DNA of 25,711 bases from IMG/VR virus record IMGVR_UViG_3300037808_001259; one strand, given 5' to 3'. Below the pieces are notes generated by a model, which saw only the letters and a list, made by a program, of their open reading frames with translations, had not been told where the DNA came from and did no database searches. The position numbers and the translations under genes are program-made. Positions 1 to 7,365 of the stretch are shown here, one piece after another (positions within the stretch are counted from its first letter, which is position 1; each line of letters opens with the position of its first letter). The DNA is from a virus.

Positions 1-465
1 CCCACATTTTCAACTGAAGCATTGACTACATCTGGTGTATTGTTATGTGTAGTGGCAGTTGCAGCATGGGTTGGATATTTGTTAGTAGGACAATCTATAA
101 TGAAGAAATATAAACCACTTACTATCGTGTTCTACGATTTTCTACAAGTGTTTGTTTATACTTCATTATTACAATCACCAGCAACTACAATTTCACAACT
201 AACCACTCATAATCTATTGGCAATTCTCTATATTGCTATAGTGGCCAGTTATATTGCATACTTATGTTATTGGACAGCAATTAAATACATTGGAGCCAGT
301 AACGCAGGAGTTGGTGAACTTTGTTTTGGTTCATTCTTTGCAGTAATAATCGCCTATTTCTTTTTAGACACGGCACCATCAGTATATCAACTATTAGGTT
401 TGGGATTACTTTCAGGTGGTATCTTCTTGATTTATAAAGAAAAACAGACCGCGTATGACCAATGA
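1..465 (+). CDS. EamA/DMT-family membrane transporter (5' partial)
   Basis: Frame is open from base 1 (PTFSTEALTTSG...). Multiple hydrophobic helices; 'YLCYWTAIKYIGASNAGVGELCFGSFFAVIIAYFFL' matches the EamA repeat pattern. Confidence 0.8.
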   Translation, partial: PTFSTEALTTSGVLLCVVAVAAWVGYLLVGQSIMKKYKPLTIVFYDFLQVFVYTSLLQSPATTISQLTTHNLLAILYIAIVASYIAYLCYWTAIKYIGASNAGVGELCFGSFFAVIIAYFFLDTAPSVYQLLGLGLLSGGIFLIYKEKQTAYDQ

Positions 466-1243
466 GATTAAATATTTAAATTTAGGAAGTCTTACTCCCG
501 ACATATATAGTTCAGTTTGGGAGTATGGAAATTTAATTGATACAAATTGTCCTACAGTTATAAAATTTTCATCAAAAAAACATATTGTAGCTTTTTTTGG
601 AAATAGTGAATTAGATATTTCATCATTTTTTAATGGAGAAATAGAATATCCGATAGTAAGAGTTTACGAAGATCCAGATAACATAGATGATGATAAACTG
701 GCATATTGGATAGAAGGTCCTAATTGTTTTAATTTTATTTTATATTTTTCTCGTGATGTAAAACCATTATTCTTACAAGCGGTACGAGAATGTTGTTTTA
801 AATTTGGAATTGAAACTTTCTGGAATGGTCGTAATGATATATTTTTTAAAATAAGGAATAAACAAAAAAAATTCTTCGGTTGTAGTTATGAGGTTATAAA
901 TAATTGTCATGTAACTGTTGGAACTATAACTTATCAGTTTGATTCTAAATTAGCAACTAAAGTTAAAGAATTGGATATTAATAATGTACTTAAAACACCA
1001 TCATTTGAACCTGATGGTGGAGATGTTAGTGATGTGGTTGGTGGTCTATGGGAAGTTGATTCAACTATTGATACCACAAAATTTAATGATGAATTTTTGA
1101 AGATTCTGATGAAAAAACTTGGTGGTACATTAGAAAAAAATAATCTATCCAGTGAAGAATTACAACTACTTATTAGTAGAGGAAAGAAAAGGTTAGAAGA
1201 TGAAGAATGGTTGTTAAAAGGAAACAATGAAAACTTTATTTGA
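455..1243 (+). CDS. Lipoate-protein ligase (BPL/LplA/LipB fold)-like protein, divergent
   Basis: 'GRNDIFFKIRNKQKKFFGCS...VTVGTI' resembles LplA 'GRNDL..DGRKVSGSA...HHGTL'. The C-terminal 'EEWLLKG' resembles the end of the LplA catalytic domain. The RRxSGGG loop is not conserved. Confidence 0.6.
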   Translation: MTNEIKYLNLGSLTPDIYSSVWEYGNLIDTNCPTVIKFSSKKHIVAFFGNSELDISSFFNGEIEYPIVRVYEDPDNIDDDKLAYWIEGPNCFNFILYFSRDVKPLFLQAVRECCFKFGIETFWNGRNDIFFKIRNKQKKFFGCSYEVINNCHVTVGTITYQFDSKLATKVKELDINNVLKTPSFEPDGGDVSDVVGGLWEVDSTIDTTKFNDEFLKILMKKLGGTLEKNNLSSEELQLLISRGKKRLEDEEWLLKGNNENFI

Positions 1244-1303
1244 AAATATAATATAGTGATAAAATAAATTAAATTTTAAGATAAAACATTAATAGTTATA
1301 TAT

Positions 1304-1747
1304 ATGAAAACAAAAACACTGTTTGACCACATAAATCATATAACAGGAAAACAAACAAAAGGTTATTGGGATACGCTCAATGATAAAGAAAAGAAAAATT
1401 GGTCTAATTATATGGTACATCGCTTCCTATCTATGAAAATGGAATGGGTAGATATAGTAAATGAGTTCCAAAAATATAATTTAAGACCACAAGAGTTATA
1501 CAAGTTATATACCAATATATTACCAAAGGGTAAGCAATGGTTGAAATACACAAAAGGTAAAAAGAGTATGAAACATCCAAAATGGTTATTAGAAATAGTA
1601 GCAAAGTACTATGAATCAAGTCTTAAAGAAGCACACGAATATTTAGAAGTATTCTATGCAACCGAACAGAACAAGGCAAATCTCAAAACTATTCTCCAGA
1701 AATACGGAGCGGATACAAAAGAACTGAAAAAACTGAACCTACCGTGA
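1304..1747 (+). CDS. T4 gp62-like sliding-clamp loader small subunit
   Basis: 'YMVHRFLSM...VNEFQKY...LYTNILPKGKQWLKYTK...VAKYYESSLKEAHEYL' aligns by eye with gp62-like proteins of T4-like phages. Confidence 0.65.
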   Translation: MKTKTLFDHINHITGKQTKGYWDTLNDKEKKNWSNYMVHRFLSMKMEWVDIVNEFQKYNLRPQELYKLYTNILPKGKQWLKYTKGKKSMKHPKWLLEIVAKYYESSLKEAHEYLEVFYATEQNKANLKTILQKYGADTKELKKLNLP

Positions 1748-3066: not shown

Positions 3067-3679
3067 ACGGAATGATATAATGATTCGAGCTGAATCAATG
3101 GGGTTTAAGTGTAGGAGTTGCACTCATAAAGGTGAAAATAATGGAAATTATAAACATGGATTGATGGTAGGTGATGGAAAAAATAAAAAATGTTTGAATT
3201 GTGAGAAGTTGATACACATTAGGTCAGTATATTGAAGGGCGTGTTCAGTAATTGGTGATAGAAACCCGTTTTATGGAAAAACTCACACCACATCTGTAAT
3301 TAATGTTGTTATTAAATCAAATAAAAATAGAGCTGGAGTAAATTGTAAAGATACTACAAGAAAAAAACACAGAGTAAATATGATAAATAAATTAAAAAAA
3401 TATCATCCTGATTTCCCAACTGGAGCTCCAATGTATAATGTAAAATCAATTTCGATAATAGAACGATACGGAAAAGAAAATAGTTACAACTTCCAACACG
3501 CAGAAAACGGCGGTGAAGTTCAAGTGATTGGATATTTTGTAGATGGCTATGACAAAGAACGGAATGTAGTGATAGAATACTATGAAAAACATCACAAATA
3601 TCAAAAAGAACGAGATGAAAGAAGAAAGTAAGAAATAGTTGATCATCTGGGATGTAAATTTATAATAATAGAGGAGTAA
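3002..3679 (+). pseudogene. Zn-finger/NUMOD3/Vsr(DUF559)-like homing endonuclease interrupted by TGA (3233-3235) and TAA (3629-3631)
   Basis: One frame throughout: CPTC..CRSC..CLNC..SVY*RACS, then GDRNPFYGKTH (NUMOD3), then GYFVDGYDKERNVVIEYYEKHH...ERRK*EIVDHLGCKFIIIEE. Confidence 0.8.
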
Positions 3680-3681
3680 AA

Positions 3682-4230
3682 ATGCACGAAAGTAAAGAAG
3701 TATTTTATAAAAATTTGGAGTGGGGAGTAGACATACATACTAATACTATGTATCTCACATACGACATAGATGCAGATAGTTTATATTCAACAATGACCAG
3801 ATTTGACCAGTTAGTTAAATACAATAAAGGTGAAGATATAAACTTGGTAGTCTCGTCTTATGGTGGAGATGTTTATGCGATGTTAGGAACAATAGATTAT
3901 TTCAGATCACTTCCAGTAAAAGTGAATACTCATTGTTTTGGAGTAGCAATGTCCGCAGCAGCAGTCATCCTCGCATGTGGAACCGGAGTTCGTTCAATGA
4001 GCATAAATTCAACAATAATGGTGCATGAGGGTTCAGCATTTGAGTCAGGTAAAACATCAGATGTACTAAAAGGTGCAGAACACCTGAAAAAATTACAAGC
4101 AAATATCAATCGTATTCTCGGTAAAGTAACAAATAAAGACCATAAATTTTGGACGAGAATATCTAAAAATGATGTGTATTTAACGGCAGACGAAGCATTG
4201 GAATACGGCATTGTTGACATTATAAAATAG
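3682..4230 (+). CDS. clpP: ClpP-like ATP-dependent protease proteolytic subunit
   Basis: 'SSYGGDV', catalytic Ser 'AMSAAAVIL', His 'IMVHEGS', Asp 'NDVYLTADEALEYGIVD'; SD GAGGAG at 3671-3676. Confidence 0.9.
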   Translation: MHESKEVFYKNLEWGVDIHTNTMYLTYDIDADSLYSTMTRFDQLVKYNKGEDINLVVSSYGGDVYAMLGTIDYFRSLPVKVNTHCFGVAMSAAAVILACGTGVRSMSINSTIMVHEGSAFESGKTSDVLKGAEHLKKLQANINRILGKVTNKDHKFWTRISKNDVYLTADEALEYGIVDIIK

Positions 4231-4242
4231 GAGTTATAAATT

Positions 4243-4665
4243 ATGACTAAATTTATCAAAGATAATAAAAAAAGAGTAATCTACGGAAACGATGGTTCAC
4301 CAGATACAATTGAAGTGAACCCACAGTCAAATAACATCATAGACAAAATGGAACGAGAATATCCAGAAATGATGAAAGAGTTTCGTAAAATACAAGAAGA
4401 ACAATATGAGTTATTTGCCAAAAAACAGCAAGCATATGGAAAAAATTCTATTTTAATGGGTGGTGATATAAATAAATCTGATGATAGACAAATGGCACTA
4501 TCAGGAGTAGTAATTAGATTGAATGATAAATTACAGAGATTATTAAATCTTGTATTAAAAAATAAGAAAAGTGCGGTAGATGAAAACGTTGAAGATACAT
4601 TTATTGACATTGCAAATTATGCTAATATAGCATTGGTTGTTAGTAGAAAAAAATGGGGAAAATAG
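4243..4665 (+). CDS. DUF1599 / nucleotide-modification-associated domain protein
   Basis: 'LFAKKQQAYG', 'IRLNDKLQRL' and 'EDTFIDIANYANIA' are characteristic of DUF1599. Confidence 0.8.
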   Translation: MTKFIKDNKKRVIYGNDGSPDTIEVNPQSNNIIDKMEREYPEMMKEFRKIQEEQYELFAKKQQAYGKNSILMGGDINKSDDRQMALSGVVIRLNDKLQRLLNLVLKNKKSAVDENVEDTFIDIANYANIALVVSRKKWGK

Positions 4666-4778
4666 TTTTTCCTGATAGTTATTATAGAACAAGGACAGCA
4701 TTCGACGGAGTGTTTCCTGAAACCTGTTTAAGTAAGGATAACTTGTTCTATAACATAAATCTGAACAGGAGAAATAAA
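4666..4778 (+). promoter_or_regulatory. Structured 5' leader RNA of the GIY-YIG gene
   Basis: Perfect 12-bp inverted repeat TTATAGAACAAG (4682-4693)/CTTGTTCTATAA (4742-4753) encloses an inner hairpin (4697-4714). TTTTTCCTG (4666-4674) or CCTGTTT (4723-4729) can pair over the SD region GAACAGGAGAAA (4763-4774). Confidence 0.6.
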
Positions 4779-5567
4779 ATGATTATCTACAAAGCTACTA
4801 ACAAAGTCAATAATAAAAGTTATATTGGTCAAACAATTAAACCATTAACACAAAGAATATCAGAACATTTACATGCATAACGAAATGATCCAGCAACCTA
4901 TTTTCATAGATCAATTAGAAAACATGGGAACGAAAATTTTAGTTGGAAAGTTATAGATAATTCAGCAAAATCTATTGGTGAGTTAAATCTATTAGAACAA
5001 AAATACATTAAAGAATATCACACATTCCGTGGTGATCCAGAATGTAATGGATATAACTTAACTACAGGTGGGATGAATAAATTATTGTCAATTGAAACCA
5101 TTAATAAAATAAGGAATACACGAATATCAAATAATGGTTATGCACACTCAAAGGAATCATTAGATAAAATGGTTGCAACTAGAACCAAAAATAACAGTTG
5201 GAAACATTCAGATGAAACCAAAGAAAAACTTAGAATATCGAGTACAGGACGTAAACATTCAGATGAATCCAAATTAAAAATGTCCATATCTAAAGTAGAA
5301 TGGCATAAGACTGTTGATATCACTGGAAAGAAAAATCCATTTTATGGTAAAAATCATACAGACGAACTTAAACTTTATTTTAAAAAATTATATGCTAAAC
5401 ATTGGATAGTTACATTTCCAAATGGCAACACTAAAACATTTTTAGGTAAAAAAGAAGTTAAACAGTATATTATGGAGTATACTATGAAAAATAATGAAAA
5501 AGTAAGTTACTATAGTTTATTTTATTATGGTAAAAATGGTCACAACTGGAAAGTTGAGAAGAAATAG
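4779..5567 (+). pseudogene. GIY-YIG homing endonuclease with NUMOD3 repeats, interrupted by a single TAA (4878-4880)
   Basis: MIIYKATN..SYIGQT..QRISEHLHA*RNDPATYFHRSIRKHG..LEQKYI..GYNLTTGG continues in frame into the 5073-5567 ORF (KHSDETKEKL, KHSDESKLKM, GKKNPFYGKNH). Confidence 0.85.
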
Positions 5568-5642
5568 ATGGACACCTTCAGGGACATTTCAGTTTATGGA
5601 ATTATTGCCGAGATAGTTCGTAGGGGTAGTTGGGGAAAATAG
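5568..5642 (+). pseudogene. Displaced C-terminal fragment of DUF1599 gene (MDTFRDISVYGIIAEIVRRGSWGK*)
   Basis: Manual translation; homologous to the last 23 aa of 4243-4665. Confidence 0.8.
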
Positions 5643-5771
5643 TGTATAGTTATAAATGTGACGCTGGACTCTATGAATCAGATTCTTGGATCGGATTGAT
5701 GATAGAAATAATTAAACATAGAACTTGGCATTTAGTAAACCACGGTAAGTGGATAGATTAGGAGAAATAAA

Positions 5772-6017
5772 ATGAAAACTGTAGATTATTATACGGCGAA
5801 CTGGTGTGGTCCCTGTAAAACTTTCAAACCAATCATATTGGAACTTGTGAGTGAGGGATATAACATAACATTACACGACATAGATACTGAACGAGATTTG
5901 GCACTAACAAATAGAATACAAAGTGTTCCAACGCTCGTCATATCAGAGAACGGTGAAGAGGTGGATAGATTAGTTGGAGTGCATACAAAACAGTCCGTCA
6001 TTTCAAAATTGTCTTGA
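5772..6017 (+). CDS. Thioredoxin
   Basis: WCGPC active site, cis-Pro 'SVPT' motif, SD AGGAG. Confidence 0.93.
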   Translation: MKTVDYYTANWCGPCKTFKPIILELVSEGYNITLHDIDTERDLALTNRIQSVPTLVISENGEEVDRLVGVHTKQSVISKLS

Positions 6018-6042
6018 CTTTAACTTATTTTTTACGTATATT
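6014..6042 (+). promoter_or_regulatory. Sigma70-type promoter
   Basis: TTGACT (6014-6019), 17-nt spacer, TATATT (6037-6042), 12 nt before the ATG at 6055. Confidence 0.7.
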
Positions 6043-6054
6043 TAGGCATAAAAT

Positions 6055-6924
6055 ATGAAAAGTATAAGCTATTCGCAATTTTCTAAATGGGATAGGTGTC
6101 CTCACGCCTGGAAACTATCTTATGTAGATAAAAAATCTGTATTTGAGGGAAACATTTATACAATTTTTGGAACCTCGATACATGAAGTATTACAAAAATA
6201 TATAAAAGTAATGTATACAGATAGTGTAAAGAAGGCCGATGAATTATATCTTGATGAATTATTAGAAGATAGACTCAGAATAAACTTTTTGGACACTATG
6301 AAAACCAATGGTGGTGTAGAGATTTGTACAAAAAATGAAATGAACGAGTTTTACCAAGACGGAATAAAAATAATAGATTTCTTTAAGAAGAAACGAAATC
6401 AATATTTCAGTAAAAAGGGTTATGAGTTACTTGGCATTGAATCTGCATTAGATTATAATATGAAAAAAGTGAAATTTAAGGGATTTATAGATTTGATAAT
6501 TCGTGACGTTAAACGTGAACGAATAAAAATTATTGATATTAAGACCGCAACATACGGCTGGAACAAATATCAAAAAGCAGATACGAACAAAACAGCTCAG
6601 TTATTGTTATATAAACAGTTCTTCTCTAAGCAGTTTGATGTTCCATTAGATAGAATTGACGTAGAGTATTTCATAGTAAAGCGAAAACTATATGAAGGAA
6701 CAGATTACCCACAAAAACGAATTCAGACATTCATCCCAGCAAATGGTACTCCATCTATAAACAAGGTTAATAGACGATTAGAGAGTTTTATAGACAACTG
6801 TTTTACAGTGGATGGGGAATACCGAACAGACCATATTTATAGTAAATTACCATCAGTAAAGAACTGTAAATGGTGTGAATACACAGACCAACCAGATTTG
6901 TGTGATAAGAAACCTGAGAATTAA
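6055..6924 (+). CDS. PD-(D/E)XK exonuclease, Cas4/AddB-like
   Basis: 'ISYSQFSKWDRCP', 'FGTSIH', 'KGFIDLI', 'IIDIKT' and 'QLLLY', plus a 1+3 Cys cluster (RCP...CKWC..DLC). Confidence 0.88.
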   Translation: MKSISYSQFSKWDRCPHAWKLSYVDKKSVFEGNIYTIFGTSIHEVLQKYIKVMYTDSVKKADELYLDELLEDRLRINFLDTMKTNGGVEICTKNEMNEFYQDGIKIIDFFKKKRNQYFSKKGYELLGIESALDYNMKKVKFKGFIDLIIRDVKRERIKIIDIKTATYGWNKYQKADTNKTAQLLLYKQFFSKQFDVPLDRIDVEYFIVKRKLYEGTDYPQKRIQTFIPANGTPSINKVNRRLESFIDNCFTVDGEYRTDHIYSKLPSVKNCKWCEYTDQPDLCDKKPEN

Positions 6925-7365
6925 ATGATAGGAAGTAATTTTAGTTTAAGGATGAAATTATCATATTTTATTAATACAGAAAATGAAAGCGATGTAATAG
7001 ATAAAATAAATGAGATATATGGATTATACCCATTTAAACTTCAGCTATGGTATGATGAGGGTGAAGTAGCACCATCAGACTTAAAGGGATTTTTGGAACG
7101 ATATGAAAAAATCCTTCACTATAAAACAACCATTACAGTCGGAAATACACATAAAATAAATGAATTTACGTGGTTTAATATAACTCATAAACGAGATATA
7201 TTATTGGAATCCCCGTTAAGATTTCAGTATTGGTTCACGGGATCATCAGCTTTTGATGGTTTAATGGATGGATTAGAAGAATTTAAGAGTTGTGTAACAT
7301 TTGTAACTTCACCAAAACCACAAAAATCACATCAACCAGTAAGAAAGCAAAAAAGGAATGATTAG
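6925..7365 (+). CDS. Hypothetical protein
   Basis: 146-aa ORF abutting its neighbours; no recognised motif. Confidence 0.7.
   Translation: MIGSNFSLRMKLSYFINTENESDVIDKINEIYGLYPFKLQLWYDEGEVAPSDLKGFLERYEKILHYKTTITVGNTHKINEFTWFNITHKRDILLESPLRFQYWFTGSSAFDGLMDGLEEFKSCVTFVTSPKPQKSHQPVRKQKRND

Follow-up and report, generated by a model that had tools for sequence, protein, structure and literature searches.

The viral DNA analyzed here, IMG/VR record IMGVR_UViG_3300037808_001259, is an AT-rich stretch of 25,711 nucleotides (nt; 30.2% GC) and is referred to below, in its entirety, as the window. It carries a DUF1599 gene that is followed by a GIY-YIG homing endonuclease gene and, behind that, by a second DUF1599 3' end (Table 1). 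A first-pass annotation of the window had placed the two ends at 4594-4665 and 5568-5642, and both these positions and the resemblance reported between them were borne out in the sequence and by a tail-specific search. The current gene closes with the 23-residue tail DTFIDIANYANIALVVSRKKWGK and a stop codon. The downstream fragment, a 24-codon open frame reading MDTFRDISVYGIIAEIVRRGSWGK plus stop, follows the endonuclease stop without a gap and has the native Met codon as its first. The two copies are identical at 13/23 residues and 48/72 nt, share their final 12 nt (TGGGGAAAATAG), and have 13 nt as their longest contiguous stretch in common.

A hidden Markov model (HMM) of the tail was built from 25 non-redundant DUF1599 tails of other phages, with the window excluded, and was run on 963 six-frame window peptides. 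It matched the current tail (E 1.3e-16) and the downstream fragment (E 1.1e-15), with the next best match at E 0.77. Because the model scores just these two places among the 963 peptides, the two tails are not a chance resemblance. Two other IMG/VR assemblies of the same phage (L001 and L002) show the identical arrangement at 99.9% identity, including a TAA codon that interrupts the endonuclease frame. The truncated endonuclease product (P0051) is recorded from 9 contigs. Taken together, the HMM result and the same structure in L001 and L002 indicate that the observation is real and not an assembly accident.

Table 1. Features of the DUF1599 locus, in window coordinates
Feature	Position	Strand	Basis or remark
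ClpP-like protease	3682-4230	+	Left-hand neighbor of DUF1599
DUF1599 (PF07659, Pfam E 1.6e-7; "nucleotide modification associated domain 1," Nmad1)	4243-4665	+	Complete 140-codon open reading frame
DUF1599 5' part, resident type, codons 1 to ~66	4243-4440	+	Identity profile, informative sites
DUF1599 3' part, probably imported, codons ~70-140, including current tail (4594-4665)	4450-4665	+	Identity profile
Leader, 113 nt, travels with endonuclease gene	4666-4778	+	Near-identical in L036 and L038; 3' part in L037
GIY-YIG/NUMOD3 endonuclease gene, free-standing, one in-frame TAA (4878-4880)	4779-5567	+	Pfam
C-terminal DNA-binding region of endonuclease, ~85 residues	5307-5564	+	Conserved in DUF1599-adjacent endonucleases
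Stranded, probably old DUF1599 end, codons 117-140 and stop	5568-5642	+	Tail HMM, identity to L005
Small open reading frame, 39 codons from GTG 5642	5642-5761	+	Not in L005
Thioredoxin (PF00085)	5772-6017	+	Right-hand neighbor; also in L004-L007
PD-(D/E)XK nuclease (PDDEXK, PF12705)	6055-6924	+	Right-hand anchor; synteny in most loci

The comparison drew on 26 viral loci and on 50 DUF1599-related proteins from databases. In the nearest endonuclease-free syntenic relatives (L004-L007), the gene order is ClpP, DUF1599, thioredoxin (Trx), and PDDEXK, with a spacer of 12 nt between DUF1599 and Trx. Amino acid (aa) identity to the window is 81% for ClpP, 81.5% for PDDEXK, and 63 to 79% for the following open reading frames (ORFs). 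The DUF1599 protein of these relatives is only 54% identical to that of the window, far below the neighboring genes. It ends in TMDAFKDISVYGIIAQIVKNGKWGK (that is, ...MDAFKDISVYGIIAQIVKNGKWGK), native Met codon included, which is the type of the downstream fragment, and no second tail fragment is present in L004 to L007. Such an ending is what the first-pass annotation had predicted for relatives lacking the endonuclease. Endonuclease-free relatives with the upstream-type tail also exist (L027-L029), and these carry no downstream fragment; the contrary pattern named in the same annotation, an upstream-type end together with a downstream piece, is thus not seen in them.

The identity profile along the locus separates the two tails. 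Nucleotide identity to L005 is 79.4% in ClpP and 80.3% in PDDEXK, 73.1% in DUF1599 codons 1 to 70, 54.5% in codons 71 to 116, 57.3% in the current tail, and 74.7% in the downstream fragment. Given this profile, the 75 nt behind the endonuclease look like the resident's own end. The displaced native tail is nearer to the closest relative than the inserted tail is, and at the protein level the fragment is identical at 17/23 residues to the tails of L003 and L005 to L007. The 5' part of the gene is likewise of resident type (73% nt identity to L005 and, in codons 34 to 70, 79% to L003). Across related genomes, the endonuclease is absent from the locus in L003, L004 to L007, L013, L014, and L029 and present in the window, L036, L038, L041, and L060 to L063, a presence/absence polymorphism at one locus. 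A blastn search of window positions 3600 to 6950 against GenBank phages returned no match, and cultured relatives, identified by the PDDEXK protein, are only distant (34 to 40%).

In alignment, the window DUF1599 protein tracks the L003/L005 type to approximately residue 66 and then the types represented by P0003/L041 and P0004/L027. Informative sites favor the resident over the foreign type by 49:10 in the 5' part and by 16:62 in the 3' part. At the protein level, the maximum chi-square breakpoint lies at residues 68 to 74 (informative sites 22:5 versus 4:27); at the nucleotide level, it lies at 4429 to 4454 (codons ~65 to 71; chi-square about 52). At neither level did any of 5,000 permutations yield so high a value (P < 0.0002). 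The first-pass annotation had put the left junction at 4591 to 4600, and this part of its reading does not hold: the foreign tract starts approximately 150 nt farther upstream, and a test for a further breakpoint where the duplicated tail begins (codon ~117 to 124) gave no significant result (P = 0.1 to 0.4). The left crossover falls in the conserved EFRKIQEEQYELF block, the most conserved of DUF1599. Imported codons 71 to 116 are nearest to L041 (73% nt identity) and are 63 to 67% identical to L027/L028, to which the current tail is nearest (86 to 89%). The shared 12-nt ending does not mark the event, as it is the WGK-stop ending of most family members (TGG GGA AAA in L003, L027, L028, and L036).

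Judged by these comparisons, approximately 1.1 kb (roughly 4440 to 5567) appears to be foreign; besides the endonuclease gene and its leader, this stretch takes in the 3' third of DUF1599. The locus accordingly reads as a foreign C-terminus (4594-4665), the endonuclease gene (4779-5567), and a displaced native end (5568-5642), and DUF1599, as the flanking gene of the endonuclease, contains a co-conversion tract. The gene itself remains an intact ORF of 140 codons that should need no splicing for its expression, as had been proposed; no Rfam family, including group I introns, was found at E ≤ 1 in 4200 to 5900. The contig encoding P0003, the protein nearest to the imported DUF1599 part, also carries two replication-clamp-loader/AAA-like genes with weak matches to intein-splicing domains, which suggests further selfish elements in replication genes of this phage group.

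We consider it likely that a GIY-YIG homing endonuclease entered an L005-like ancestor by double-strand-break repair and brought a foreign DUF1599 3' part with it. The enzyme would cut endonuclease-free DUF1599 in its 3' half, and the initiating break would have been made in the 3' region of the resident gene. The left end would then have been repaired by homologous invasion of the donor gene, with the crossover at approximately codons 67 to 70, so that the imported segment ran from there through the donor tail, the 113-nt leader, and the endonuclease gene (~4440 to 5567). The current tail type (DIANYANIALVV) would thus have been supplied by the donor and not by the resident. The right junction appears to lie inside the resident gene at codon 117, the last 24 codons having been pushed behind the endonuclease stop instead of being replaced. 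Two routes to this junction can be envisaged: illegitimate joining of the broken end, if the donor had no homology downstream, or pairing and recombination with a leftover tail that the donor already carried, as in the logic of mitochondrial mobile ORFs. The former is favored by a comparison of two further loci, L036 and L038, in which the L036 junction lies 16 nt into donor-type downstream sequence. If the left end of the remnant marks the broken end, the cut would lie past the crossover near codon 70 but no farther than codon 117. The endonuclease has since gained its nonsense codon.

The same element at the same position in other phages is consistent with this history. The best relative of the window endonuclease, the intact P0052, is encoded by L036, where the order is ClpP, DUF1599, endonuclease, an 87-aa ORF, and PDDEXK. 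L038 carries the same endonuclease. A block of approximately 1,010 nt, which starts at DUF1599 codon ~46 and runs 16 nt beyond the stop of the endonuclease gene, differs between L036 and L038 at 2 positions only; beyond its borders, the two genomes show weak similarity or none, and their PDDEXK proteins are only 55% identical in aa. Because a near-identical block lies inside otherwise divergent genomes, the DUF1599 3' part, leader, and endonuclease appear to have moved horizontally and recently, as one unit, between the two lineages. In L036, the shared block gives way at once to a separate leftover tail (...IMATIVGRDKWGK plus stop; tail HMM E 1.6e-6), which is of a third, L014-like type. In L038, the block is followed by an unrelated 86-aa ORF whose first codons are still retained in L036. 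Together with the identity profile and the breakpoint, this pair of loci upholds the earlier proposal that the endonuclease arrived with a foreign DUF1599 3' end and left the old one behind.

The L036/L038 tail upstream of the endonuclease is of the same type as the window remnant (52/69 nt). The linkage of the endonuclease to a remnant-type tail argues against the related idea, also from the first-pass annotation, that tail type alone would confer resistance to cleavage. Across loci, the leftovers measure 75, about 42 to 57, about 18 to 24, and 0 nt, a spread that would fit either independent joins or later trimming. At three other loci, tail-like codons occur at the endonuclease 3' ends. Six to eight such codons overlap the gene end in L041 (NRRGGK plus stop, 1468-1488), L063 (IVSNGSWS, ~3785-3808), and L062 (SRGKWAK plus stop, in another frame, 877-900). 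These short ends are tentatively regarded as trimmed leftovers.

Several findings weigh against a simple version of this account. No endonuclease-free sibling of >95% identity was found; as the best empty-site relative is only ~80% identical, the label "resident" is derived from identity profiles. The 75-nt remnant is short and is about equally near to the L003, L005, and L036/L038 tails (50 to 52 of 69 nt). It is probably the original tail of this lineage, although it may instead have come in with the element as a leftover. L038 lacks a leftover tail, and none was detected in L063 at E < 1; such a remnant is thus not produced in every case. Finally, Trx is only 57% (aa) and 63% (nt) identical to that of L005, and an extra small ORF lies behind the remnant; the right flank has therefore also been remodeled, which complicates a history of a single event.

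The extra ORF lies between the remnant and Trx and is absent from L004 to L007. Its start codon and an SD (Shine-Dalgarno)-like GGGGA sit in the last bases of the remnant. The start is GTG in the window and ATG in L001/L002, and the same G/A change swaps the remnant stop from TAG to TAA. A homologue (44% identical) is found in L026, 1.8 kb upstream of DUF1599. Where a leftover ends, the following gene begins, at GTG/ATG 5642 in the window and at ATG 4781 in L036, and DUF1599 and PDDEXK overlap at the corresponding place in L029. The last bases of the remnant may therefore have been retained for the ribosome-binding region and start codon that they supply to the downstream gene. The cargo of the DUF1599-PDDEXK interval varies (nothing, Trx, 86- to 87-aa ORFs, or, in L041, a 172-aa ORF), and the interval is a hot spot of exchange. 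Elsewhere in the window, the 99.9% match of the sister assemblies is confined to sequence downstream of window 1307 (L001) or 1019 (L002). Upstream of these points (window 1-1306, L001 1-1064, and L002 1-776), no alignment was obtained, except that L002 63-200 matches window 1307-1445 at 95%. The mismatch suggests another rearrangement or a variable region.

The endonuclease gene is free-standing: it lies outside any intron or intein and forms an ORF by itself, preceded by an SD sequence of its own. Read through its stop codon, it matches PF01541 at residues 2 to 82 (E 1.2e-7, above the cutoff); the N-terminal 33 aa alone reach E 6e-6, and NUMOD3 is matched in three stretches (E 6e-13). The window copy is a pseudogene by virtue of its single in-frame TAA, and the gene is intact in L036 and L038. 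The leader holds a perfect 12-bp inverted repeat (4682-4693/4742-4753) and the SD sequence AGGAG. It is near-identical, both stem arms included, in unrelated contigs (window 4666-4778, L036 4002-4117, and L037 1-72), and it is open in the endonuclease frame in all three. The predicted leader fold buries the SD sequence in the window (z = -3.97). As a candidate regulatory structure, SD sequestration was rejected: the z value is only -0.85 in L036, the SD pairing is not reproduced, and the 12-bp stem shows no covariation. A scan of viral contigs with a 27-nt leader/start pattern gave matches from the same phage only.

The C-terminal DNA-binding region is 72 to 76% identical in L036/L038 and 57% identical in L041, and it also occurs in L060, L062, and L063. 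A word-index search with this region retrieved P0052 only, and a metagenome scan with the domain retrieved one locus, L038. An exhaustive representative search with the C-terminal 86 residues, combined with context look-ups, reached L041, L060/L061, L062, and L063. All endonucleases found with the domain lie directly 3' of DUF1599 (window, L036, L038, L041, L060/L061, L062, and L063), and they precede PDDEXK wherever the contig reaches that far. Endonuclease coordinates are 4118-4726 in L036, 713-1489 in L041, 132-904 in L062, and 3001-3816 in L063. The nuclease modules differ: PF01541 is present in the window, L036, L038, and L060, and a LEM-3-like GIY-YIG module (PF22945) is present in L041, L062, and L063. 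Conversely, L037 combines the nuclease domain and leader of the window with a different, Cys-rich C-terminus; no DUF1599 tail was detected on this contig, which begins inside the leader. Domains have thus been shuffled among these endonucleases, with one C-terminal region joined to at least two GIY-YIG nuclease modules. Because the same C-terminus is always found 3' of DUF1599 while the nuclease modules differ, it behaves as a targeting module and is predicted to be specific for the 3' region of phage DUF1599 genes.

Among other explanations, the first to be weighed is a strict cassette, the model of the first-pass annotation and of the type known from fungal mobile ORFs, in which a replacement tail plus the endonuclease (4591-5567) inserts at a fixed site at codon 117, the junctions mark the recognition/cleavage site, and recoding protects the carried tail from being cut. 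Such a cassette would account for a remnant that starts right after the endonuclease stop at the codon homologous to 4591, and for a current tail that is 86 to 89% identical to L027/L028 when the preceding 46 codons reach 63 to 67%. It would also suit the short piece of another tail found at the 3' end in most endonuclease loci (L036 and, tentatively, L041, L062, and L063). However, the foreign tract extends ~150 nt upstream of 4591, and a breakpoint at codon ~121 to 124 has P = 0.1 to 0.4. Moreover, leftover lengths vary (75, about 42 to 57, or about 18 to 24 nt, with none in L038), and the L036/L038 endonuclease is linked to a tail of the window-remnant type. An upstream co-conversion tract is compatible with a cassette, and the main difference from our preferred explanation is the origin of the right junction. 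Overall, we regard the strict form as rather unlikely.

Far less probable is a local tandem duplication of the DUF1599 3' end, with the endonuclease inserted between copies that then diverged. The homologous tails do share a strand, at a distance of 977 nt, and agree in their final 12 nt, but they are only 67% identical in nt. For the upstream copy, identity to tails of other phages is 86 to 89%; the downstream copy has 75% identity to the tail of the nearest syntenic relative. In addition, the gene is mosaic from codon ~67, and the same block moves between L036 and L038. We give hardly any credence to an endonuclease housed in a self-splicing intron (or a segment otherwise removed), for which the downstream fragment would be the true last exon and the upstream tail incidental. 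GIY-YIG endonucleases are frequent in phage group I introns, and codon 116 joined to 5568 would yield a full-length resident-type protein. Against this stand the lack of any Rfam match in the region scanned, an upstream tail that is a genuine family tail (E 1.3e-16) with its own stop and 89% nt identity to the uninterrupted L028 gene, and the endonuclease-bearing L038, which lacks a downstream exon-like piece. A chimeric assembly of two strain variants, conceivable for a metagenome-type record, is equally implausible given three separately assembled contigs alike at 99.9%, a truncated product on 9 contigs, 13 contiguous shared nt that are too short to mislead an assembler, and an analogous architecture in L036 from an unrelated sample.

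Beyond the homing event that we favor for the window, a broader reading is possible, although we hold it tentatively and at somewhat less than even weight. In this group of marine phages, the DUF1599/PD-(D/E)XK junction may be a dedicated landing site for a GIY-YIG family that has one DNA-binding domain and swapped nuclease modules and that habitually replaces the DUF1599 3' part. Leftovers would be kept, trimmed to different lengths, as the downstream translation start region and/or as a right-hand homology arm for the next homing. If so, the system would be a phage counterpart of fungal mitochondrial mobile ORFs. Whichever the case, the locus illustrates how an endonuclease can invade a conserved coding region without killing the gene, by way of an imported gene end. 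Through such events, phage genes become mosaics and small orphan ORFs arise, which an annotation pipeline would list as hypothetical proteins. The predicted DNA-binding module, previously undescribed and tied to one target gene (DUF1599/Nmad1), is a candidate new specificity. No discussion of DUF1599 as a homing target was found in the searchable literature, in which the domain is named in just three papers.

Co-conversion by free-standing Seg and Mob enzymes of phages is classical. Intronless homing of the T4-type SegE, SegF, SegG, and MobE with co-conversion of flanking markers was reportedly described by Belle et al. in 2002 and Liu et al. in 2003. The window resembles these systems in its intergenic GIY-YIG gene beside a conserved gene, the presence/absence polymorphism between related phages, the donor tract in the neighboring gene, and the decay of the endonuclease by point mutation. 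In the T4 cases, however, homologous recombination exchanges the sequence on either side and leaves no gene end in two copies, whereas here the resident end survives behind the element.

Fungal mitochondrial mobile ORFs (mORFs) are closer in architecture. They are known from atp6 of Allomyces macrogynus (Paquin, Laforest & Lang 1994, as cited in PMC3630166) and from atp6, atp9, cox2, and nad3 of Glomus (Beaudet et al. 2013, PMC3630166). As in mORFs, there is a foreign in-frame C-terminus, an endonuclease ORF, and a displaced native C-terminus, and no splicing is needed. In Glomus, the native end is 91 to 98% and the inserted end 64 to 81% identical in nt to the nearest relative (PMC3630166); the native piece is likewise nearer here (75% versus 57%). 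Unlike in mORFs, the host is a phage and not an organelle, and the endonuclease is a separate ORF behind a stop and a 113-nt leader instead of an in-frame fusion. Nor is the foreign DNA limited to the duplicated part at one fixed site, as it is in mORFs: the tract reaches ~150 nt upstream of that part, and leftover length varies, with one locus having none.

Among phages, "HEG-islands" have been described in ICP1-like and other phages, in which endonuclease genes bound exchanged segments (Barth, Dunham & Seed 2023, PMC10055350). The same study reports gene fragments beside endonuclease genes, proposed as recombination substrates, and shuffling of nuclease and DNA-binding domains. The phages, endonuclease families, and cargo gene differ from ours, and the present case goes further in that the fragment is apparently the displaced end of the same gene, with a mapped breakpoint and an empty-site relative. 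In Aeromonas phage Aeh1, nrdA is split by mobE (Friedrich et al. 2007; Crona et al. 2011, PMC3045599). There, too, a free-standing endonuclease lies inside a conserved phage gene whose function is rescued without splicing; in Aeh1, two polypeptides reassemble, whereas here an imported end keeps the gene undivided and the old end is apparently surplus. The architecture is thus already known, from fungal mORFs and from the fragments of phage endonuclease islands, and the mechanism is one expected from homing biology, with no new principle. What the window adds to these systems is a well-resolved natural example for which the crossover has been mapped and an empty-site relative is available, with L036 as a second, independent case.

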